From: a virus
Lineage: Duplodnaviria; Heunggongvirae; Uroviricota; Caudoviricetes
DNA length: 64,000 nt
IMG/VR virus record: IMGVR_UViG_3300029288_000055
Coordinates: 160,001-224,000 of that record
Strand: one strand, 5' to 3'
This document shows, piece after piece, positions 35,018 through 55,986 of the stretch. The position numbers and the translations under genes were made by a program. The first letter of the stretch is position 1; every line of letters starts with the position of its first letter. The notes beneath the pieces were generated by a model. It was given only the letters and a program-made list of their open reading frames with translations, ran no database searches and was not told the origin of the DNA.

Positions 35018-35680
35018 ATGAAGAATAATAGTACAAAAGAAAGATTGTTTGAAGTTATTGGTAGATTAGATAAAACATTTAAACCAATTGAAGATAAAAC
35101 AATTGCCACAACATATCAACTTGTCACACCCGAAAGTGCTGAAGCTGGTGATTTTTCAGATCAAGGCTGGGTAAATCAAGAAGGTGAATCAATGCTTCCT
35201 AATAAATATGAAATAGAAGAAGGTATAACAGTAGTTGATAAAGCAGTTAAATTTTTAAAAGATAATGGTGGTACTGAACCATCATCAAGTCAATTTCATG
35301 TTGGTGTATGGTATTCTACACCAGACCCAGATAGAGATTATAAATATATTCAAACTGGTGAAGAAAAATATTATTCATATCATTTAAAAGGATTTACTCT
35401 TGAAGAAGAAGCAGAAATTTATAAAAAAATTCAAGAAAAAGAAAAAATTATACCCGAACAACAAACAAATATGCAACAATCACAAGACGTAACATATACT
35501 GATAACACATATAAAGTAATTGCACCCATACTTAGAAGAGTTAGGACAGTTGATCAATTTCCTTTAGCATTTAAAGGTTGGTTTAGCTCATTGGGATATA
35601 ATCCACAATCATCACCACTTACAATAGCACAGGCAAGAATAATGGTTGAACAAGTTATGAGAGAATTAGGCTATAAATAA
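35018..35680 (+). CDS. Late protein of the RLFE-motif family
   Basis: MKNNSTKERLFEVIGRLDKTFKP; late motif at 34995. Confidence 0.7.
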   Translation: MKNNSTKERLFEVIGRLDKTFKPIEDKTIATTYQLVTPESAEAGDFSDQGWVNQEGESMLPNKYEIEEGITVVDKAVKFLKDNGGTEPSSSQFHVGVWYSTPDPDRDYKYIQTGEEKYYSYHLKGFTLEEEAEIYKKIQEKEKIIPEQQTNMQQSQDVTYTDNTYKVIAPILRRVRTVDQFPLAFKGWFSSLGYNPQSSPLTIAQARIMVEQVMRELGYK

Positions 35681-35716: not shown

Positions 35717-35747
35717 TTTGTATTTATGATTTTAATGTATATCTTTG
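35717..35747 (+). promoter_or_regulatory. Promoter of tRNA cluster 1 (host TTTG-N19-TATCTTTG with embedded GTATTTAT late motif)
   Basis: TTTG 35717-20, GTATTTAT 35720-27, TATCTTTG 35740-47. Confidence 0.75.
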
Positions 35748-35781
35748 CGAAGAGTTTTTAATAAATGTTATTTGTAAGACG

Positions 35782-35856
35782 ATGAAAAATTTAATAAACA
35801 TAGTACCACAACCCCAACAGCATCCACAAAGTTTGGAATGGGGAAACTATGCTTAA
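35782..35856 (+). CDS. Attenuator leader peptide 1: MKNLINIVPQPQQHPQSLEWGNYA
   Basis: Eight consecutive Pro/Gln/His codons (35806-35829), followed by antiterminator, terminator and Pro/His/Gln tRNAs. Confidence 0.85.
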   Translation: MKNLINIVPQPQQHPQSLEWGNYA

Positions 35857-35887
35857 ATTTTTCACAGGAAAATTTTTTAGGTTAGAC

Positions 35888-35918
35888 AAACCCCATTCAT
35901 ATTGAGTGGGGTTTTTTT
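35888..35918 (+). terminator. Attenuator terminator 1
   Basis: AAACCCCATTCA-tat-TGAGTGGGG then TTTTTTT; the 5' arm can alternatively pair with GAATGGGG at 35836-35843. Confidence 0.88.
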
Positions 35919-35943
35919 ATGGTGTTCGTTGAAATATTTTTAT

Positions 35944-36038
35944 CAGGGTGTGAGCGAGTTGGTTGAAGCTGCTGGTCTTGGAAACCAGTCACGACACAAA
36001 GGTGTTGTCGTGCGTGGGTTCGAACCCCACCACCCTGA
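35944..36038 (+). tRNA. tRNA-Pro(UGG) with long variable arm
   Basis: Acceptor CAGGGTG/CACCCTG with A73; anticodon arm CTGGT-cttggaa-ACCAG; GGTTCGAAC T-loop; about 25-nt variable arm. Confidence 0.8.
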
Positions 36039-36094
36039 CGTTAGAGGATTAACTATATATGACTGTACTTGGGACTGGCAAATTAGTAATATTT

Positions 36095-36170
36095 CGAGTA
36101 GTTGGGGAGTTGGTCACCCCGCCACATTTGGGATGTGGAGAACTCGCAGGTTCGAATCCTGCCTACTCGA
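36095..36170 (+). tRNA. tRNA-Pro(UGG)
   Basis: CGAGTAG/CTACTCG acceptor; CCACA-tttggga-TGTGG. Confidence 0.9.
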
Positions 36171-36172
36171 CT

Positions 36173-36248
36173 GTGCTAAGTGTAGATGTTGGCATTCTTC
36201 ACCTGACTGTGAATCAGGGTTTCGTGGGTTCGATTCCCATTTAGCACC
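36173..36248 (+). tRNA. tRNA-His(GUG), atypical D-arm
   Basis: GTGCTAA/TTAGCAC acceptor with C73; CCTGA-ctgtgaa-TCAGG. Confidence 0.7.
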
Positions 36249-36282
36249 AAAAAGCGTGATAAAAGCGTTTATCACGGAATTA

Positions 36283-36358
36283 CGGGATATAGTTCAGTTG
36301 GTAGAATGGGTGCTTTGGGAGCATCAGGTCGTCAGTTCGAGTCTGGCTATCCCGACCA
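36283..36358 (+). tRNA. tRNA-Pro(UGG)
   Basis: CGGGATA/TATCCCG acceptor; GGTGC-tttggga-GCATC; encoded CCA. Confidence 0.92.
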
Positions 36359-36361
36359 CAT

Positions 36362-36438
36362 GGTGATTGTAGAGGAATTGGTAAACTCGCCTGACTGTGA
36401 ATCAGGTATTTGCGGGTTCGACCCCCGTCCTTCACCCA
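36362..36438 (+). tRNA. tRNA-His(GUG)
   Basis: G-1 present; CCTGA-ctgtgaa-TCAGG; two acceptor mismatches. Confidence 0.8.
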
Positions 36439-36518
36439 GCATCGTTTGGCGAACGATATGAATCGGTTTCTTAATGCCCTGATCGCAGGGTGGCGTATAG
36501 TTGAAGCATCGCCTACAT

Positions 36519-36592
36519 TGCCACATGGCGCAATTGGCTAACGCACCTGACTCTGAATCAGAAGATTGTAGGTTCGACTCCTACTGTGGCAA
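36519..36592 (+). tRNA. tRNA-Gln(CUG)
   Basis: TGCCACA/TGTGGCA acceptor; loop ctctgaa. Confidence 0.9.
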
Positions 36593-36599
36593 CAACAAA

Positions 36600-36704
36600 T
36601 TATACCCGATCAGGACTATGAATTCATATGAAATTTACATAAAATTCTGGGTATTAATGTCTTAGCAAAAACGCTAAAATTACGATAGTCCTGATCGGGT
36701 ATAA
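36600..36704. repeat. Perfect 20-bp inverted repeat flanking a 65-bp AT-rich spacer
   Basis: TTATACCCGATCAGGACTAT (36600-19) / ATAGTCCTGATCGGGTATAA (36685-704). Confidence 0.85.
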
Positions 36705-36716
36705 AATAGTATAAAC

Positions 36717-36800
36717 TGTCCTTTGGCAGAATGGTTATTGCATCGGTCTTTGAAGCCGACACCCCCAACGGGTTTGTAGGTTCGAATCCTACAGGGACAA
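36717..36800 (+). tRNA. tRNA-Gln(UUG) with long variable arm
   Basis: TGTCCTT/AGGGACA acceptor; TCGGT-ctttgaa-GCCGA; ACCC-ccaac-GGGT extra arm. Confidence 0.85.
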
Positions 36801-36848
36801 CTTTTTTAATGTTCTTTGATATTTCATAATTATTATTACCTTTGCAAA

Positions 36849-37625
36849 ATGTATTATGTAGTTCAGGAAAATGTATTCAGGGAAGAAAATTATGACAATT
36901 TAATATTGGCATTGGATAAACTTACCTTACCATATGAAATTGTCAAAGTTAAACCCTTTATTGAAACATTCAGAATACATACCAGAAGAAAAGATATCTT
37001 TCCTTTTGGTTCATTGAAAATGGCAAGAATATCAGCGAAACGTGGCTGGCGACCCGGTTCTCAAATGAATGCTAATCACGATTATTTGGTTTATCGTGAC
37101 TATTATAAAGAAAATCTTTTGAATTATGATTCACACATACAGAAATTTGGTGATGATTTTTTCAGTAAAGAAACGTTCTTTGCACGACCAACACAAGATA
37201 CGAAAGTATTTACAGGAAAGGTCTTTGACATGCAAGAATGGCGAGAATTTGTGGCATATTCTCTTACTAACGGTCATAGTACCTTATTGAATATTGACAC
37301 TGAAATTCAAATATGTTCAGTAAAAAAGATTCAACAAGAGATCAGGTTCTGGATTGTTAAAGGTGAAATTGTTACCGCAAGTCAATATAGACTTGGAAAC
37401 AGATTGGTGCTTAGTGAAAATGTTGATCAGGCAGCTTATGACTACTGTAAGAAAATGGTTGACATATTTCAATTGAACGATGCTTTTGTAATGGATTTAG
37501 CTTTAACTGAAAATGGATATAAAATCATTGAATGTGGTTGCATTAATTGCGCTGGATTTTATAAAGCAAATATGCAGAAACTTTTAATGAAACTTGAAGA
37601 TAGTTTTAATTGTCCTATGGTGTAA
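36849..37625 (+). CDS. ATP-grasp protein (R2K/DUF4343-like)
   Basis: FARP....K.F.G, E.RFWIV.G.IVT.S.Y, FVMDLA....G.KIIE.GC.N.AGFY. Start moved to ATG 36849, just after TACCTTTG at 36837-44. Confidence 0.75.
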   Translation: MYYVVQENVFREENYDNLILALDKLTLPYEIVKVKPFIETFRIHTRRKDIFPFGSLKMARISAKRGWRPGSQMNANHDYLVYRDYYKENLLNYDSHIQKFGDDFFSKETFFARPTQDTKVFTGKVFDMQEWREFVAYSLTNGHSTLLNIDTEIQICSVKKIQQEIRFWIVKGEIVTASQYRLGNRLVLSENVDQAAYDYCKKMVDIFQLNDAFVMDLALTENGYKIIECGCINCAGFYKANMQKLLMKLEDSFNCPMV

Positions 37626-37684
37626 TTGGTTAACACGTTGGATTTTGATTCCAAAGAGTCGGGGTTCGAGTCCCTGTAGGACAA
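37611..37684 (+). tRNA. tRNA-Gln(UUG)
   Basis: TGTCCTA/TAGGACA acceptor; TTGGA-ttttgat-TCCAA; overlaps the last 15 nt of the upstream CDS. Confidence 0.88.
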
Positions 37685-37693
37685 CAAATTTTT

Positions 37694-37852
37694 ATGGTTA
37701 TGAGCAAATTAAGAGTAGGTAATAAACAAAATGCAATTCTAAATGGTGAATGGGCAGGACACATGCGCAAGTGGGGAAAATTCTTCACCGCCAAAATACG
37801 TAGAAATGTAGATAAGAAAATAATAAGAAACGAAATTAAAAATGAGCTATAA
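37694..37852 (+). CDS. Small basic protein (52 aa, MVMSKLRVGNK...GEWAGHMRKWGK)
   Basis: Manually read ORF overlapping the next start. Confidence 0.55.
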   Translation: MVMSKLRVGNKQNAILNGEWAGHMRKWGKFFTAKIRRNVDKKIIRNEIKNEL

Positions 37853-38216
37853 TCTATTCCTTGACGATTTTCGTGAACCAGAAGATGCATTTAATCACAC
37901 AAATAATCAATTATATTTAATTGGTTGGGTTGTTGTTCGTAATTATAATGAATTTGTAAAAGCAATTGAAGAAAAGGGTATTCCTGAAATGATTTCATTT
38001 GATCATGATCTTGCGGATGAACACTATGAATCTTATAAACAATATGGCGAGTATAAAGAAAAGACTGGTTTTCATTGTGCTAAATGGTTTATCAATTATT
38101 GTATTGACAACAAAAAAGAACTTCCAGCAACAATTCTTATACATTCAATGAATCCTGCTGGAAGTGCTAATATTAAATCTTTGTTCGATACTTATAATAA
38201 ATATTTCAGAATTTAA
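37842..38216 (+). CDS. Cyclic-phosphate-processing receiver-like domain protein
   Basis: LFLDD.R.P, VVRNY.EF, ISFDHDL, TG..CAKW, IHSMNPAG. Confidence 0.75.
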   Translation: MSYNLFLDDFREPEDAFNHTNNQLYLIGWVVVRNYNEFVKAIEEKGIPEMISFDHDLADEHYESYKQYGEYKEKTGFHCAKWFINYCIDNKKELPATILIHSMNPAGSANIKSLFDTYNKYFRI

Positions 38217-40152: not shown

Positions 40153-40245
40153 ATGAAAAATTTATTCGACATATTGGTAGCAGTCCTCATGGTGGATGTC
40201 CTATTATGGGCAGCCGAAGAGGATGATCTATGCGTAGTCGGGTAA
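40153..40245 (+). CDS. Attenuator leader peptide 2: MKNLFDILVAVLMVDVLLWAAEEDDLCVVG
   Basis: 22 of 30 residues are L/V/D/A/E/W, matching the downstream tRNAs; the 3' end is the antiterminator strand. Confidence 0.82.
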   Translation: MKNLFDILVAVLMVDVLLWAAEEDDLCVVG

Positions 40246-40282
40246 TACTTTGAATATTACAACCTCCTTTCTTATAAAAAAG

Positions 40283-40316
40283 AAACCCGACTACCCTAAA
40301 TTTAGTCGGGTTTTTT
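40283..40316 (+). terminator. Attenuator terminator 2
   Basis: AAACCCGACTA-ccctaaatt-TAGTCGGG then TTTTTT; the 5' arm pairs 10/10 with GTAGTCGGGT at 40234-43. Confidence 0.88.
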
Positions 40317-40356: not shown

Positions 40357-40435
40357 GGTGCTGGGGTCTGCTTGGTGTGGACGCATGACTGTCACTCATG
40401 ATATCAGGAGGGTTCGATTCCCTTCAGCACCGCCA
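40357..40435 (+). tRNA. tRNA-Asp(GUC)
   Basis: GGTGCTG/CAGCACC acceptor, G73 and CCA; CATGA-ctgtcac-TCATG. Confidence 0.9.
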
Positions 40436-40544
40436 TTCTCAACCGAAAGCAAGTAGGTTACTGGTGAAGCGGAGATCGTGACTCCAACCTTGATGGTTCG
40501 TTCCTGAGAGGGCATGGTTGCAAAAAACAGTTTGGGGATATTTT

Positions 40545-40617
40545 CGAGGCTGTGGTGTAATGGCTAACATACCTGACTGTCACTCAGGTGTCTGGGGTTC
40601 GAGTCCCCCGGTCTCGG
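40545..40617 (+). tRNA. tRNA-Asp(GUC)
   Basis: CCTGA-ctgtcac-TCAGG; GGTTCGAGTCC T-arm; slightly irregular T/acceptor junction. Confidence 0.82.
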
Positions 40618-40794
40618 CACATTTTTACTGCCAAAGCAGTAAAAAATAAAAATTTGAGGTAAAAAGTATCGTTAATATCACTTTTTTATTTACTTTTACC
40701 GTTTTGGCAGTAAAAAACGACTATTTGTTAAGAAATAATAATTTGTTTCAAATAAAGTGCATTATTTTGCACTAAATAAATTAATAAAGTATTT

Positions 40795-41397
40795 ATGAAT
40801 ATGAATGAAAATATTATATATGGTTTAAAAGACCCAAGGACTGATGAATATAAGTATGTTGGTAAATCAATAAAAGGAATCGAAAGAGCAAACTCACACT
40901 TAACACATTCTCATAATCCATTGGTTAATGAGTGGATTAATGAACTTAAAATGGATAGTTATGTTCCACTTGTTGTTATTTTGGAAAATGTTTCTGATTG
41001 GACACAATTGATCGATAAAGAAAAATATTGGGTCGGGAAATTAACCGATGAAGAACACGATTTATTTAACATTTTAATTACAGATTCATATAACAATACG
41101 CTGGATTCCTATAATAAGAAATTGATACAACAAATAAAAGATAGGGAAAAAGTGTTAAATGAAAAGTTAAATAAATCATTAATGCAATTCGGTAGTGAAT
41201 CAGATGTTGGTGATTTAATAAAAAGAAGACGTAAAACTCTAAAAGTAACACAACAACAACTTGCAGATATTTCTGGGGTTGGGTTACGAACAATAAAACT
41301 AATTGAATTAAACAAATCAAATGCGACTATTAATACTTTAATGAAAATATTTGATACTTTAGGTTATGAACTTTTCATTAACTTAAAAACAAAATAA
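40795..41397 (+). CDS. GIY-YIG-like endonuclease fused to a C-terminal XRE HTH
   Basis: IYGLKDPR...YKYVGKS...RA..H...E..W; C-terminal RR..L.VTQQQLA..SGV...TI..IE. Confidence 0.7.
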   Translation: MNMNENIIYGLKDPRTDEYKYVGKSIKGIERANSHLTHSHNPLVNEWINELKMDSYVPLVVILENVSDWTQLIDKEKYWVGKLTDEEHDLFNILITDSYNNTLDSYNKKLIQQIKDREKVLNEKLNKSLMQFGSESDVGDLIKRRRKTLKVTQQQLADISGVGLRTIKLIELNKSNATINTLMKIFDTLGYELFINLKTK

Positions 41398-41400
41398 TAT

Positions 41401-41483
41401 GCTGCGTTATACAAGCGACTAAAGTAGACAGACCTTCAATCTGTCATCGAAAGATTTCGTGGGTTTGAATCCCACACGCAGTA
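41401..41483 (+). tRNA. tRNA-Glu(UUC), C33, long variable arm
   Basis: GCTGCGT/ACGCAGT acceptor; ACAGA-ccttcaa-TCTGT; T-loop TTTGAAT. Confidence 0.7.
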
Positions 41484-41580
41484 CGATGTTGAGGTGGTAT
41501 TACACGGGGAAAAGAAAGTCCCTGCTGATAATCTAAAAAATGTGGACAGCATGTGGGTATAAATCCCGCCAACTACACCT

Positions 41581-41652
41581 GCTCGATTCTTCTAATGGAA
41601 AGGAAAGCTGACTCTCAATCAGTTAACGGCAGTTCGATTCTGCCATCGAGTA
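41581..41652 (+). tRNA. tRNA-Glu(CUC)
   Basis: GCTCGAT/ATCGAGT acceptor; GCTGA-ctctcaa-TCAGT. Confidence 0.88.
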
Positions 41653-41657
41653 CAAAT

Positions 41658-41732
41658 GCTCGGTTCGTCTAAGGGTTAGGATGTAAGACCTTCAATCTTA
41701 AAATACGGGTTCGATTCCCGTACCGAGTACCA
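41658..41732 (+). tRNA. tRNA-Glu(UUC), C33
   Basis: GCTCGGT/ACCGAGT acceptor with ACCA; TAAGA-ccttcaa-TCTTA. Confidence 0.88.
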
Positions 41733-41847
41733 AAATGGGGCATAAAAACCCCAGATGTTAAGTAAATGGGGAAAATATGCCCCATACTACAAAAATGTAG
41801 TATATTATCAACAAAAATGCCAGTTATGATGATAATATACAACAAAT

Positions 41848-41936
41848 GCACTTTTAGCTCAGTCTGGTTCAGAGCGCAACCCTTACAAGGTTGAGGCGAA
41901 TAGTTCACGGGGGTTCGAATCCCTCAAAGTGCACCA
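41848..41936 (+). tRNA. tRNA-Val(UAC) with extended variable region
   Basis: GCACTTT/AAAGTGC acceptor with ACCA; CAACC-cttacaa-GGTTG. Confidence 0.88.
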
Positions 41937-41938
41937 AT

Positions 41939-42014
41939 GCTCTTTTAGCTCAGTTGGGTCAGTAGCGTCTGTTTTACAAGCAGAAGGTCGTAGGTTCGAA
42001 GCCTACAGGGAGCA
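41939..42014 (+). tRNA. tRNA-Val(UAC)
   Basis: GCTCTTT/AGGGAGC acceptor; TCTGT-tttacaa-GCAGA. Confidence 0.88.
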
Positions 42015-42126
42015 CAAAGGTCCGCACACAGGGGCGGACCTTAAATATAGGTAAAATAACCGATATAATGCATTTATCGGTTGTAGAGGCGATAAAGAGT
42101 ATTTATCGTGTGTAGAATGCATAAAC

Positions 42127-42208
42127 GTCCATATGTTGTAATTGGTAGCCAAGCTGGTCTAAGAAGCCAGTGCCGTAAGGCGTGTCGGTTCGACTCCGAC
42201 TATGGACA
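42127..42208 (+). tRNA. tRNA-Leu(AAG)
   Basis: GTCCATA/TATGGAC acceptor with A73; CTGGT-ctaagaa-GCCAG; long variable arm. Confidence 0.88.
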
Positions 42209-42217
42209 CAACAAAAC

Positions 42218-42292
42218 GCAGGTGTAGCCGAATGGTCAAGAGGCAGCAGTTTTAGAAACTGAAATTTGCGGGTTCGACTCCCGCCACCTGTA
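42218..42292 (+). tRNA. tRNA-Leu(UAG), short variable loop
   Basis: GCAGGTG/CACCTGT acceptor; CAGT-tttagaa-ACTG. Confidence 0.82.
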
Positions 42293-42357
42293 CAAACGTT
42301 CTCTTTGAGTAGTAATATTCATTAAATTTGGTAGCAATATCAAGTAGGGAACACCAA

Positions 42358-42433
42358 GCGGATGTGCTGGAACTGGTATACGGGTTGGCTTCAGACACCA
42401 ATATTAATGAGGGTTCGAGTCCCTTCATCCGCA
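42358..42433 (+). tRNA. tRNA-Leu(CAG), short variable loop
   Basis: GCGGATG/CATCCGC acceptor; TTGGC-ttcagac-ACCAA. Confidence 0.78.
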
Positions 42434-42511
42434 CCGACCTTATTCTGGATAACGAAGCAAATAGTTCCAGACACTCAGTCCTGAAGTCATGGTTCAGGAG
42501 TAAGGACAACT

Positions 42512-42584
42512 GCCCCGTTGACGTAATCGGCAACCGTATCAGTCTTAAAAGCTGAGTTTCACAGTTCGAATCTGTGACGGGGTA
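42512..42584 (+). tRNA. tRNA-Leu(UAA), short variable loop
   Basis: GCCCCGT/ACGGGGT acceptor; TCAGT-cttaaaa-GCTGA. Confidence 0.82.
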
Positions 42585-42588
42585 CAAA

Positions 42589-42789
42589 GGTGAATGCTGT
42601 TACTTATTTGCAGTAGTAACACCACCTGTGCCGAATAACTTGTAGAGAGGAAAGTAGTACTTTTCAATACTTTGTGGATTGCAAATATACATTGGTTGAG
42701 TTATTAAAAAGGCACACACGGGCGTAAGAGTAATTCTCTGTAAGTCGGGTTGATCACCGAAGTAGGTTAAAATCCTACTACGTTCACCA
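42589..42789 (+). ncRNA. Putative ~200-nt structured RNA with tRNA-like acceptor stem and T-arm
   Basis: GGTGAATG/CGTTCACC-A end pairing, AGTAGG-ttaaaat-CCTACT, several internal hairpins; sits between two tRNAs. Confidence 0.5.
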
Positions 42790-42790
42790 C

Positions 42791-42864
42791 GGGGTCGTGG
42801 CTCAATTGGCTAAAGCATCTGCCTTGCACGCAGAGGACTGTGGGTTCGAGTCCCACCGACTCCA
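42791..42864 (+). tRNA. tRNA-Ala(UGC)
   Basis: GGGGTCG/CGACTCC acceptor with G3:U70; TCTGC-cttgcac-GCAGA. Confidence 0.92.
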
Positions 42865-42901
42865 CAAACAAAGGTCCGCAAATATTTGCGGACCTTTACT
42901 T

Positions 42902-42975
42902 GGGGCATTCGCTTAGTTGGCTAAAGCATCTGTTTTGCAAGCAGAAGATCGTGGGTTCAACTCCCACATGCTCCA
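42902..42975 (+). tRNA. tRNA-Ala(UGC)
   Basis: GGGGCAT/ATGCTCC acceptor with G3:U70; TCTGT-tttgcaa-GCAGA. Confidence 0.9.
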
Positions 42976-43092
42976 CACAATCCATAATAATAAGGCAAGT
43001 AACAAATCTTGTGTTCGTGGGAACAACATGTCCGTGCGTGCGCAGGGATAAATTGGTTGATGCTCCAATCGTGCCCACGAAGGGTTGCACTT

Positions 43093-43179
43093 GTAGGTGT
43101 ATTCCGTAATGGCGAAATTGGTTATGTCATCCATGTAACAAGGGTTGGAATGTTAGAGGTTCGAGTCCTTTCATCTACA
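43093..43179 (+). pseudogene. Degenerate tRNA, anticodon not assignable
   Basis: GTAGGTG/CATCTAC acceptor and AGAGG-ttcgagt-CCTTT T-arm; irregular core. Confidence 0.5.
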
Positions 43180-43185
43180 CAAACA

Positions 43186-43264
43186 ACGGATTTAACATAG
43201 TGGCAAGTGTTGCACCTTAAGTCCTGCGTGGCTGGTAACGGTGGTTCGATTCCATCAATCTGTT
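43186..43264 (+). pseudogene. Degenerate tRNA (possibly Leu-derived)
   Basis: ACGGATT/AATCTGT acceptor, GGTGG-ttcgatt-CCATC T-arm; broken anticodon stem around CTTAAG. Confidence 0.45.
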
Positions 43265-43273
43265 GTTAAAAAT

Positions 43274-43356
43274 ACGCAAGTTGCCGAGTGGTTAAAGGCA
43301 CGGGTCTCCAAAACCCGCAGAGAAATCTTTCGTGGGTCCAAATCCTACCTTGCGTG
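43274..43356 (+). tRNA. tRNA-Trp(CCA) with long variable arm
   Basis: ACGCAAG/CTTGCGT acceptor with G73; CGGGT-ctccaaa-ACCCG; atypical T-loop. Confidence 0.72.
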
Positions 43357-43367
43357 CAAATTAAAAT

Positions 43368-43439
43368 GCGTCTGTCGTCTAATGGCTAAGACAACGGCTT
43401 CCAAACCCGTGAATAAGGTTTCGATTACTTTCAGACGTG
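43368..43439 (+). tRNA. tRNA-Trp(CCA)
   Basis: GCGTCTG/CAGACGT acceptor with G73; ACGGC-ttccaaa-CCCGT (one mismatch). Confidence 0.7.
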
Positions 43440-43490
43440 CTAAAATCAGATAATTATGAAAACGCAAAAAGCAATGTGCATCCTAAAAGG

Positions 43491-51276: not shown

Positions 51277-52295
51277 AAGAAAAAAACGGCTTATTAATTA
51301 ATGAAAATTACTGGCGTAATATGTCGCCAATGGAATTAGAAAATTTTGCTCAGAAAATTTTTATACATTACAGAGAAAATGGTTTTCCTTATTATCCAAC
51401 AGATATTGAAATAAGACAAAAAGATTTTGAGCAGTTAATGAATTATGATTTCAAAGCGTTATTTGAAAATAATATAATAAAGCAATCGATGCATGGTCTT
51501 GGACTTGCGTGGTCATATTTTCCACACTCATTCAATGTCAGGTCAAATGATAAAATGACTCCATATGAAGCATTTATGGATGATGAAATTTTCATAAAAG
51601 TCATCAAAAAACGTTTACAGATGGGTACATATATATCAGACTCTGGCATAAGAAAGATGTTGAAAATATTTACGGGCGTACAGGGAGTATCGAATTTCAG
51701 ACCAACAGCAGCAGCATGCATTTATAATACGTTTGCTAAAGACGGTGTAGTTTGGGATATGTCAGGTGGTTGGGGTGGAAGATTGCTGGGGGCAATTGCT
51801 GGTGGGGTTCAGAACTATATTACGACTGAACCTTCAGAGTTAACACATAAAGGCTTGACAGAAATGGCTTATTGTTTTTGTCCCAAAGGCATGGATTACA
51901 TGATCTTGAAAATGGGAAGTGAAGTATTTAGACCAGACAAGAACAGCTTAGATTTGTGTTTCACATCACCGCCATATTTTGATCTTGAAAAATATAGTGA
52001 AGAACCTTCACAGAGCTATATCAAATTTAATACGAAAGATACATGGGTTGAAGGATTTTTGAGACCAACATTTAAAAATTCTTATTATGGATTAAAACAA
52101 GGTGGATATATGTTGATTAATATTGCTGATGTAAAAGGCAAACACAATGTTAATTTGGAATGGGAAACTATTATAACTGCAGAAAGTATTGGTTTTACAC
52201 ATGAAAACACGCTTCAATTAGCACTTTCAAATGTAAATTTGCGTGATAAAGGAAAGAAGTTTAAGTATGAACCTATTTATGTATTTAAGAAATGA
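51273..52295 (+). CDS. DNA amino-methyltransferase (N4-C / N6-A type)
   Basis: WDMSGGWGGRLLG (motif I) then FTSPPYF (motif IV), LKQGG. Confidence 0.85.
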   Translation: MKEKNGLLINENYWRNMSPMELENFAQKIFIHYRENGFPYYPTDIEIRQKDFEQLMNYDFKALFENNIIKQSMHGLGLAWSYFPHSFNVRSNDKMTPYEAFMDDEIFIKVIKKRLQMGTYISDSGIRKMLKIFTGVQGVSNFRPTAAACIYNTFAKDGVVWDMSGGWGGRLLGAIAGGVQNYITTEPSELTHKGLTEMAYCFCPKGMDYMILKMGSEVFRPDKNSLDLCFTSPPYFDLEKYSEEPSQSYIKFNTKDTWVEGFLRPTFKNSYYGLKQGGYMLINIADVKGKHNVNLEWETIITAESIGFTHENTLQLALSNVNLRDKGKKFKYEPIYVFKK

Positions 52296-53377
52296 AAATG
52301 TTAGAAAAAATTGATTGGAAGGTTCTCTGCACATATGTAGAAAATAGCCTCATTATTGCAAACAAACATCCAGAATTGGATATTTGGATACTTAATTATT
52401 CTCCAAAAGTTCAGTCAAAAAAGTTCTGGGATGAATATACCTTATCTTGTCGTGGATTGGTAATTGATGCTGAAGGTAACATCTTAGCTCGTCCATTCGA
52501 AAAGTTCATGAATTACGAAGAATATGACCCATCAGAAATTGACTGGTCAAAGGACTTTGATGTATTCGAAAAAATGGATGGTTCATTGATTATTATATTT
52601 TATTATGAACCAAGAATGAAATGGATAGTAGCTTCCAGAGGGTCATTTATTTCTGAACAAGCACTTGAAGCACAAAAAATGATTACAGTTACAGATTATG
52701 GCAAACTGGATATTGAATACACATATCTATTTGAAGCAATTTATCCAGAAAACCGAATCGTTGTTAATTATGGTAATAGAAGAGAACTTGTGTTACTTAC
52801 CAAAATTAATACAAATACTGGTGCTGAAATAAATAACGATGAATTGGTTAACAAGTATTCAAAGCATTTTACAGTTGTGAAGAAATTTCAACTTAAATCA
52901 TTTGATGAATTAAAACAATTAATAAAAAATGGTGAAGATAATAGTGAAGGTTTTGTTATTAGATTCTCTGATGGCTTAAGATTAAAAATGAAATTTGCTG
53001 AATACTGCAGATTGCATGCAATATTAACAAATGTTTCTAATTTAACTGTTTGGGAACATTTGATAAATAATTATGATTTTGATGCATTATATGACAGAGT
53101 TCCAGATGAATTTTACAACTGGCTAAAAAGAACAATAAAAGCAATACAGTCAGAATTCAATGAGATCGAAAGAAAAGCATTGAAAGAATTCATTAGAATT
53201 TACTATGTAAATGGAATTACTGTTCGTAAGGATTTCGCAATGGAAGCGATAAAAACAGAATACCAGTCAATATTATTTAAATTGTACGACAAAAGATCAT
53301 ATGATGAAATCATTTGGAAATTAGTGCGACCAGTTTACAGTAAGCCGTTTCGAGACGGTTTTGAATATAGCATATAA
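52292..53377 (+). CDS. RNA ligase, T4 Rnl1-like
   Basis: CRGLV, ARPF.KF.N, EKMDGSL (adenylated Lys), SRGSF, FE.I.PENRIVV.Y, EGFV, K.K..EY. Confidence 0.9.
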   Translation: MKMLEKIDWKVLCTYVENSLIIANKHPELDIWILNYSPKVQSKKFWDEYTLSCRGLVIDAEGNILARPFEKFMNYEEYDPSEIDWSKDFDVFEKMDGSLIIIFYYEPRMKWIVASRGSFISEQALEAQKMITVTDYGKLDIEYTYLFEAIYPENRIVVNYGNRRELVLLTKINTNTGAEINNDELVNKYSKHFTVVKKFQLKSFDELKQLIKNGEDNSEGFVIRFSDGLRLKMKFAEYCRLHAILTNVSNLTVWEHLINNYDFDALYDRVPDEFYNWLKRTIKAIQSEFNEIERKALKEFIRIYYVNGITVRKDFAMEAIKTEYQSILFKLYDKRSYDEIIWKLVRPVYSKPFRDGFEYSI

Positions 53378-54843: not shown

Positions 54844-54936
54844 ATGAGAACATTTGGTACATATTATTACGGTAAAAAATCTTATAAGAAACAGCTTATA
54901 GGAATCGGGAATACTATGACCAAAGGTAAAATATAA
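54844..54936 (+). CDS. Attenuator leader peptide 3: MRTFGTYYYGKKSYKKQLIGIGNTMTKGKI
   Basis: 8 of 10 codons at 54862-54891 are Tyr/Lys; followed by antiterminator, terminator and Lys/Tyr tRNAs. Confidence 0.85.
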   Translation: MRTFGTYYYGKKSYKKQLIGIGNTMTKGKI

Positions 54937-54965
54937 CTTTCGTACTTTTTTTCATAATTAAGACT

Positions 54966-54992
54966 AACCCGATTCGCAAGATCGGGTTTTTT
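54966..54992 (+). terminator. Attenuator terminator 3
   Basis: AACCCGAT-tcgcaag-ATCGGG then TTTTTT; CCCGATTC pairs 8/8 with GAATCGGG at 54902-09. Confidence 0.85.
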
Positions 54993-55132: not shown

Positions 55133-55205
55133 GCGCTCGTAACTCAGTTGGTAGAGTAACGGACCTTTAATCCGTGAGTCGTGGGTTCGACCCCCACCGG
55201 GCGCA
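55133..55205 (+). tRNA. tRNA-Lys(UUU), C33
   Basis: GCGCTCG/CGGGCGC acceptor; ACGGA-cctttaa-TCCGT. Confidence 0.9.
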
Positions 55206-55262
55206 CTTAAGGTATAGTTTAGGTATTTTCTGTATCCATATTAACTGAAATATCCACAAGTT

Positions 55263-55333
55263 GTACCCGTAGCAAAGGGGATATGCCCTTGGCTTTTAAC
55301 CAAGTGACGTAGGTTCGATTCCTACCGGGTACA
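55263..55333 (+). tRNA. tRNA-Lys(UUU)
   Basis: GTACCCG/CGGGTAC acceptor; CTTGG-cttttaa-CCAAG. Confidence 0.85.
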
Positions 55334-55339
55334 CAAATT

Positions 55340-55420
55340 GGGTACGTTGAGCAATTGGTTGGCTCGCCTGACTGTAGATCAGGTTCTTCGGACGTAGGGG
55401 TTCGAGTCCCTTCGTACCCA
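55340..55420 (+). tRNA. tRNA-Tyr(GUA)
   Basis: GGGTACG/CGTACCC acceptor; CCTGA-ctgtaga-TCAGG; variable arm. Confidence 0.9.
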
Positions 55421-55426
55421 CAAATA

Positions 55427-55502
55427 GACTCCGTAGCTTAATTGGTGAAGCTGCACTCCCTTAAAGTGAGGATTATGGGTTCGAGTCCCATCGGGGTCAC
55501 CA
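55427..55502 (+). tRNA. tRNA-Lys(CUU), C33
   Basis: GACTCCG/CGGGGTC acceptor with ACCA; CACT-cccttaa-AGTG. Confidence 0.82.
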
Positions 55503-55513
55503 AATTTTTTATT

Positions 55514-55750
55514 ATGGAAACAATTAAAACAATTGTAAACGGAACACAAGCAACTTTAAGCCACGTATGTAATGGCAAAGCATGCTATAAAATTATGACT
55601 GCAGATCACATATATCAACTTGAAATCAATTTGATGGATTCTGAATGGAAGGATGTATACGTATATCCTGAATACAAGACGATTACCTTAATGCGTTGGA
55701 TACGCAAGGGCATCGAGAATGATGACGGTTCATTCATTATGATGAAATAA
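55514..55750 (+). CDS. Hypothetical 78-aa protein inside the Lys/Tyr tRNA operon
   Basis: ATG 55514 (the track start overlaps a tRNA). Confidence 0.65.
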   Translation: METIKTIVNGTQATLSHVCNGKACYKIMTADHIYQLEINLMDSEWKDVYVYPEYKTITLMRWIRKGIENDDGSFIMMK

Positions 55751-55756
55751 TATGCT

Positions 55757-55838
55757 GGGTAGGATGGTAAGTGGGCGAAATCAATGGTCTGTAAAACCCC
55801 CGCCTTTGGCTATGCAGGTTCGAATCCTGCCCTACCCA
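55757..55838 (+). tRNA. tRNA-Tyr(GUA)
   Basis: GGGTAGG/CCTACCC acceptor; loop ctgtaaa; weak anticodon stem; variable arm. Confidence 0.75.
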
Positions 55839-55986
55839 CACTAATCTTACAAAATTTATTTTTTGTAAGATTTTTTATTTCAGTCACTTATAATTTTTAT
55901 TTAGTCTAAATAAAAATAACTCTTGCATTTTTAATTAAAAGTATTTATATTTACAAAAATAATTTTATGCTTAAGTATTATGAAAA

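Follow-up and report, generated by a model that had tools for sequence, protein, structure and literature searches.

A predicted leader-peptide attenuator of tRNA genes in a jumbo phage and its sister units

The closest described systems are the leader-peptide attenuators of amino acid operons. In the E. coli pheL-pheA system, a short leader ORF containing consecutive control codons is combined with alternative 1:2, 2:3 and 3:4 helices and an intrinsic terminator, and read-through takes place when the control codons are decoded slowly (PMC3082878). The trpL and hisL leaders are likewise leader-peptide attenuators, while thrL and ilvL are multivalent. In E. coli, the pheM-pheST attenuator responds to charged tRNA and regulates an aminoacyl-tRNA synthetase operon, a component of the translation machinery. 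Leader-peptide attenuators are not known to control genes other than those for amino acid biosynthesis, transport or aminoacyl-tRNA synthetases. T-box riboswitches also respond to tRNA charging by a terminator/antiterminator switch; they bind the tRNA directly and work without translation. Putative leader-peptide attenuators have been described in Bacteroidota chromosomes, upstream of amino acid biosynthesis operons or protein genes and not of tRNA genes (PMC9723704, PMC7366714). Regulated supply of tRNAs is represented by the Anabaena trn operon and its repressor TrcR, where a tRNA array is normally silent and is induced by translational stress (PMC8421152, PMC10272220). The reason why phages carry tRNAs has been an open question for more than 50 years (PMC10264068); bacterial immunity widely targets tRNAs, an attack that phage-encoded tRNAs are able to counter (PMC12409363, PMC10264068).

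The locus reported here has the same order of elements as pheL-pheA and would share multivalent sensing with the thr and ilv leaders. It very likely represents a ribosome-mediated transcription attenuator that acts as negative feedback on tRNA supply, a conclusion for which no transcript or bench evidence exists. Its anatomy, its conservation, the covariation of its helices and the match between its codons and its tRNA cargo are shown below. The analyzed window, a 64,000-nucleotide stretch, corresponds to positions 160001-224000 of a 362,763-bp contig (C1; GC 30.5%). The contig encodes a T4-like major capsid protein and what we take, from the ORF list, to be portal and terminase genes, and was therefore assigned to a jumbo phage. 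It was binned with an unrelated small cellular genome and makes up 29% of that assembly (G000). A cultured close relative was not found, the best capsid matches being at 33-42%. Altogether, the contig carries 55 tRNA genes and a tmRNA.

Four units with the same order of parts were found on the contig. Unit 1 precedes Pro, His and Gln tRNAs, and its three sisters add 16 amino acids, giving a total of 19. The leader and terminator of unit 2 (40153-40316, + strand) precede Asp/Glu/Val/Leu/Ala/Trp tRNAs (40357-43440), those of unit 3 (54844-54992, + strand) precede Lys/Tyr tRNAs (55133-55839), and the fourth unit lies beyond the window, at contig position 226051, before a Thr/Cys/Asn/Ile/Ser/Phe/Gly/Arg block. 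Each of the four leaders is enriched in the amino acids carried by the tRNAs of its block. For comparison, relatives were identified by capsid homologues (75-94% identity) together with a neighbouring gene, resulting in 26 further phage contigs with tRNA arrays. Units were called by a pipeline blind to tRNA identity, which used only the promoter box, the first ATG and a hairpin followed by a T-run. The pipeline retained 72 units and 17 more were added or corrected by coordinate, so that the final set includes 89 units in 27 related genomes (24, 26, 20 and 19 in classes 1-4, respectively).

Several other features accompany the arrays. Block 2 contains an inserted 200-codon gene (40795-41397) with a C-terminal helix-turn-helix and an N-terminus that we take to resemble a GIY-YIG endonuclease, and is followed by the phage tmRNA (46983-47347), whose long tag peptide is kept in relatives. 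The array ends with a tRNA with a CUA anticodon (contig 237313-237385), similar to amber suppressors and present in many relatives; the phage ORFs inspected use the standard code despite it. Small proteins at 35018, 39305, 39709 and 31229 (the last on the minus strand) have in common an N-terminal K-x-R-L-F-E-type motif, and two of them are encoded directly upstream of tRNA leaders. A 2009-residue protein encoded on the minus strand at about contig positions 57967-63993 (L166:4967-10993) has a head domain of the poly(A) polymerase/CCA-adding type and a weak Acb1-like match.

Unit 1 is preceded by a 220-codon gene that ends at 35680 on the same strand. A -7 box of the Bacteroidota sigma-A type (TAnnTTTG) is located at 35740-35747 (+ strand) and predicts a transcription start at about 35752, the consensus and its position at -12 to -5 being taken from PMC9723704 and PMC7366714. 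A similar box is found upstream of 79 of the 89 leaders. An additional motif with the core TATTTA (35720-35727, + strand) occurs upstream of 86 of the 89, and the same core lies no more than 70 nt upstream of 7 of 10 genes of the morphogenesis region. This motif is possibly a phage late promoter or a -33 element of host promoters, and it might let the units also fire late in infection; its function is inferred. A scan for sigma-70 promoters was uninformative (46 found versus 57 expected).

The first ORF after the promoter box is the 24-codon leader (35782-35856, + strand), whose 24 homologues show a conserved start, in-frame indels and synonymous variation. It contains eight consecutive control codons for Pro-Gln-Pro-Gln-Gln-His-Pro-Gln (35806-35829, + strand). 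A six-frame translation of the 363-kb contig contains three runs of eight Pro/His/Gln codons, thus the run alone is not unique; in the 24 homologous units its median length equals 8 in frame and 1 in the other frames. Inside the leader ORF, segment 2 (35836-35843, + strand), the 5' arm of the antiterminator, is the exact reverse complement of segment 3 (35891-35898). Their 2:3 helix closes an inner stem to form the antiterminator domain (35836-35898, + strand; -20.3 kcal/mol, z -4.93). Segment 3 also belongs to the 3:4 hairpin of an intrinsic terminator (35888-35918, + strand; -16.1 kcal/mol), with a 12-pair stem at 35888-35914 followed by the T-run, and this stem is the sole strong + strand terminator called in the 33-45 kb interval. 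By computation, the two structures are mutually exclusive. A 1:2 hairpin (35783-35865, + strand; -19.0 kcal/mol) is predicted as a candidate protector or pause element; on ribosome-free RNA it would bury segment 2 together with the start codon. All elements named in a preliminary description, made from sequence alone, proved to lie at the positions it gave, including the eight control codons, the pairing of segment 2 with the 5' arm of the terminator, and the terminator itself. The 5-bp 1:2 pairing that it named is a portion of the longer predicted hairpin, for which covariation support is weak (78% of alignment cells paired, with two-sided changes no better than in shuffles).

The other helices are supported by covariation. 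Among 20 aligned class-1 units, 97.5% of the cells of the 2:3 helix are paired and three pairs have two-sided changes; the seven two-sided cells were matched in none of 500 shuffles, and slid controls were paired in 15-61% of cells. The shuffle control ignores relatedness. One U-A to C-G change of the antiterminator is observed in three separate branches (G004, G010 and G028). The terminator is paired in 98% of cells, with two-sided changes in six of its eight pairs. A significant leader-terminator duplex was detected in 77 of all 89 units, and one class-1 unit (G019) is an exception without the standard 2:3 helix. The conservation of segment 2 extends over two different reading frames, therefore it is selected as RNA.

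The switch was modelled as equilibrium folding with assumed ribosome footprints. On nascent RNA, the probability of the 2:3 helix was ~1.0 with codons 2-16 in the A site and dropped to 0 once the A site reached codon 18, remaining so up to the stop; across class 1, the predicted median was 1.0 at the control codons and 0.0 at the stop. The modelled change from read-through to termination falls just after the last control codon. With this codon in the A site, segment 2 begins 12 nt after the first P-site base, the distance at which the ribosome channel is entered (PMC8861025). The spacing between the control run and the G-core of segment 2 equals 10 nt in 13 of 24 units and 9-13 nt in 20 of them. 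Since a modelled stall at any of codons 2-16 gives read-through, the specificity for Pro, Gln and His is quantitative (8/15 codons) and not absolute. For a class-1 leader that carries no ribosome, the model favors termination. When folding is allowed to reach full equilibrium, the terminator prevails for the majority of ribosome positions, so that the switch depends on kinetics and coupling; real switching would require coupling and probably a polymerase pause, which are inferred and untested in this host. In sister classes 3 and 4, segment 2 is often situated well before the stop codon and would thus not be covered by a ribosome that has reached the stop.

The cargo of unit 1, as called by ARAGORN and Rfam, comprises three tRNA-Pro(UGG), two tRNA-His(GUG), one tRNA-Gln(CUG) and two tRNA-Gln(UUG), with nothing else before the next leader. 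All are on the + strand. The tRNA-Pro genes are located at 35944-36039 (a long variable arm and A37 in place of the usual G37), 36095-36171 and 36283-36358; the last has an encoded CCA end, which the other seven tRNA genes of the block lack. The tRNA-His genes are at 36173-36248 (below the Rfam gathering score) and 36363-36437, tRNA-Gln(CUG) at 36519-36593, and tRNA-Gln(UUG) at 36717-36801 (an enlarged variable arm) and 37611-37685. The unusual tRNAs at 35944-36039 and 36717-36801 could be variants that evade nucleases or modification. A near-perfect long inverted repeat (36600-36704, -39.4 kcal/mol) separates two of the tRNA-Gln genes, and smaller spacer hairpins occur at 36255-36276, 40620-40720 and 42060-42110.

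The block also includes a gene of the R2K clade of ATP-grasp proteins (36849-37625, + strand; Pfam PF14243, E 9.8e-21), the end of which is overlapped by the last tRNA-Gln. An internal -7 box precedes it (36837-36844, + strand); with the spacing from PMC9723704, the predicted transcription start coincides with the ATG at 36849, hence a leaderless mRNA is predicted. The eighth tRNA is likely, by inference, to be transcribed from this box as well. No -7 box was found between the terminator and 36800, which leaves the promoter of the leader as the only evident one of this kind for the first seven tRNAs. The preliminary description was right in its tRNA content, and the internal promoter between 35918 and 35944 that it considered would refute it found no support in the same search for -7 boxes; one refinement is that the last tRNA-Gln probably also has a promoter of its own. 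A gene for a cyclic-phosphate-processing receiver domain (37842-38216) follows the ATP-grasp gene and a T4-type RNA ligase is encoded nearby (52292-53377); conceivably, the three genes form a tRNA repair kit.

Leader composition and cargo agree throughout the survey. The best-scoring codon class of the leader is the class of its cargo in all 89 units, and the true leader-cargo pairing is the unique best permutation in 19 of 19 genomes. Pro, His and Gln account for 37% of class-1 leaders, 1-3% of other leaders and 8% genome-wide. The position of the control run, its conservation in 24 units and the complete leader-cargo match are far beyond chance. The agreement extends to individual codons: CUN codons track Leu(NAG) tRNAs in 39 of 40 units, and the Trp codon tracks the Trp tRNA in 38 of 40. 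In one clade (G010, G012, G014 and G042) the CUN-reading Leu tRNAs have moved to block 4 together with the CUN codons; G012 shows a joint relocation of the Trp codon and its tRNA; and in G014 block 4 is split in two, either half having its own matching leader. These relocations amount to about three evolutionary events and not many. Rare Pro codons are over-used in class-1 leaders (CCC or CCG, 33/65 versus 13% genome-wide). CAG codons did not strictly track the Gln(CUG) tRNA, being concordant in 16 of 24 units. The order and length of the control run vary freely among homologues, one leader (G027) has no in-frame ATG, and in a few class-1 blocks no His or no Pro tRNA was called. In G014 a Lys/Tyr leader seemed to be followed by 'Leu', a mismatch that was rejected because ARAGORN had misassigned tRNAs for Tyr and Lys. 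The entire Pro/His/Gln unit, including its leader, is inverted relative to other blocks in G010, G012 and G014 (L101, L104 and L107).

A covariance model of unit 1 detected three new copies outside the training set, each followed by Pro/Gln(/His) tRNAs, and no notable match in three near-complete genomes of relatives that have only 1-6 tRNAs; the low-tRNA status of relatives was checked in five genomes only. No T-box was found by Rfam, which reported only tRNA and tmRNA in the 30-64 kb interval, and none of its His, Trp, Thr, Leu or Phe leader families or riboswitches matched at the gathering score.

Transcription start, leader translation, switching and the physiological trigger are inferred, and the proposed mechanism is as follows. 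Host RNA polymerase would start near 35752, with a ribosome following on the 24-codon leader. With an ample supply of charged tRNA-Pro, -Gln and -His, the ribosome would continue past the control codons into segment 2, allowing the terminator to fold and ending transcription near 35918. When any of the three tRNAs is short, whether consumed, uncharged or cut by a host defence, the ribosome would wait in the control run, segment 2 would pair with segment 3, no terminator would form and the Pro/His/Gln tRNAs would be made. The new tRNAs would then speed up translation of the leader and shut off their own synthesis. As the genes switched on are tRNAs reading the control codons, the loop would be a negative feedback on decoding capacity, and four such units would divide 19 amino acids among them.

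Of the requirements for an attenuator, the unit fulfils the following: a conserved short ORF between promoter and genes, control codons matching the cargo, an intrinsic terminator before the first tRNA (supported by sequence and covariation, termination itself being inferred) and, computationally, an antiterminator that excludes the terminator, is free on a stall and is blocked when the ribosome proceeds. A cargo of biosynthesis, transport or synthetase genes is lacking; such cargo is typical and not mechanistically defining. Because its cargo consists of tRNA genes, the unit is a variant of the leader-peptide attenuator and not an ordinary member. Attenuation, as the preliminary description read this locus, is thus supported by covariation of the 2:3 and 3:4 helices, conserved spacing, the leader-cargo match and the folding model, and further by the co-migration of codons with tRNAs and the absence of the unit from tRNA-poor relatives, but it remains inferred and not measured.

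The phage contig has two sigma-70-like genes. It lacks a gene for the RNA polymerase beta subunit, therefore the use of host polymerase is likely. The host was not identified; we infer that it is probably a member of the Bacteroidota, since the leaders have the TAnnTTTG box and Shine-Dalgarno-like words are rare. Ribosomal protein S21, which marks some jumbo phages of Bacteroidota, is absent from this phage. The putative attenuators of Bacteroidota chromosomes share the probable host phylum and the promoter type with the phage units, which suggests that the host machinery supports attenuation.

Among alternative explanations, the one that survives best keeps the same attenuator but has it selected as a sensor of amino acid starvation, as a nutrient or timing cue. 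Classical leader-peptide attenuators all respond to amino acid limitation (PMC3082878), and a ribosome cannot distinguish an uncharged from a missing tRNA, so mechanically the two readings overlap. We consider this version unlikely: extra tRNA would, by inference, be no cure for a lack of amino acids, the choice between CUN and UUR for Leu codons agrees with the anticodons of the tRNAs that the operon itself carries, and the over-used rare Pro codons point, with the Leu codon class, to isoacceptor sampling. Codon-class tracking and rare Pro codon use therefore favor tRNA supply as the sensed quantity.

A general sensor of translation stress, in which any slowing of ribosomes by host shut-off, antibiotics or ribosome shortage would open the operon and the codon match would be minor, is very unlikely. 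In its favor, a modelled stall at any of codons 2-16 leads to antitermination, and the repressor-controlled tRNA operon of Anabaena is induced by general translational stress (PMC10272220). However, one leader of any composition would suffice for such a sensor, whereas four distinct compositions persist and correspond to their cargo even at the level of the Leu codon class; the tendency of the ribosome-free class-1 leader to terminate also argues against it.

Two further explanations are all but excluded. The hairpin could be a plain terminator of the upstream gene, or be overridden by a phage antitermination protein, with the short ORF being incidental or encoding a functional peptide. No other terminator was called for the 220-codon gene, and the two sigma-like phage genes leave room for timing to be controlled otherwise; however, this view leaves unexplained the covariation between segment 2 and the terminator arm, the conservation of segment 2 across reading frames, the promoter box between gene and leader and the cargo match in 89 of 89 units, nor is there a -7 box to drive the tRNAs between the terminator and 36800. 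Nascent-peptide arrest of the TnaC/Erm type, in which a Pro-rich peptide would stall the ribosome on a ligand or for lack of EF-P, fits the Pro-rich control run, Pro being known to slow peptide-bond formation, but Pro-Pro is absent from this leader, run order and length vary freely, and sister leaders without Pro have the same design.

Under the favored reading, feedback attenuation on tRNA supply, the mechanism is already known, and what is new is its use on tRNA genes, in a phage, with a four-part division of the code. In contrast to amino acid operon attenuators, the phage output is tRNA genes and not enzymes, four paralogous units split the genetic code, and segment 2 lies inside the ORF; the product of the unit is the sensed molecule, so the feedback is direct. 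The pheM-pheST attenuator differs in being chromosomal and in controlling a charging enzyme for a single amino acid. The Anabaena trn operon, functionally the nearest analogue, relies on a protein repressor of the ribbon-helix-helix type acting at initiation and on one array for all isotypes, and the words 'attenuation' and 'leader' do not occur in PMC8421152. Attenuation of tRNA genes was not found in the literature searched, which misses most subscription papers. As far as found, this would be its first case, with the sensor input being the gene product. The countering of tRNA-cutting defences by phage tRNAs (PMC10264068), as with PARIS AriB and T5 (PMC12409363), is a likely selective reason for on-demand supply; the abstracts of both papers deal with tRNA sequence and rescue and mention no regulated expression or attenuator. 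A defence link of the present units remains a possibility based on inference only.

If the switch is indeed driven by demand, phage tRNAs would be a reserve deployed when decoding fails, and the leaders would provide ready-made reporters of which tRNA pool falls during infection or when a tRNA-cutting defence is activated. A bolder reading, which we would neither favor nor dismiss, is that jumbo phages run a code-wide, isoacceptor-resolved tRNA homeostat in which a given tRNA block is produced only if ribosomes stall at the codons that its tRNAs read. If this is true, the attenuators would be sensors of host immunity that destroys tRNAs, and their leaders a readable record of the tRNA pools attacked or exhausted during infection.
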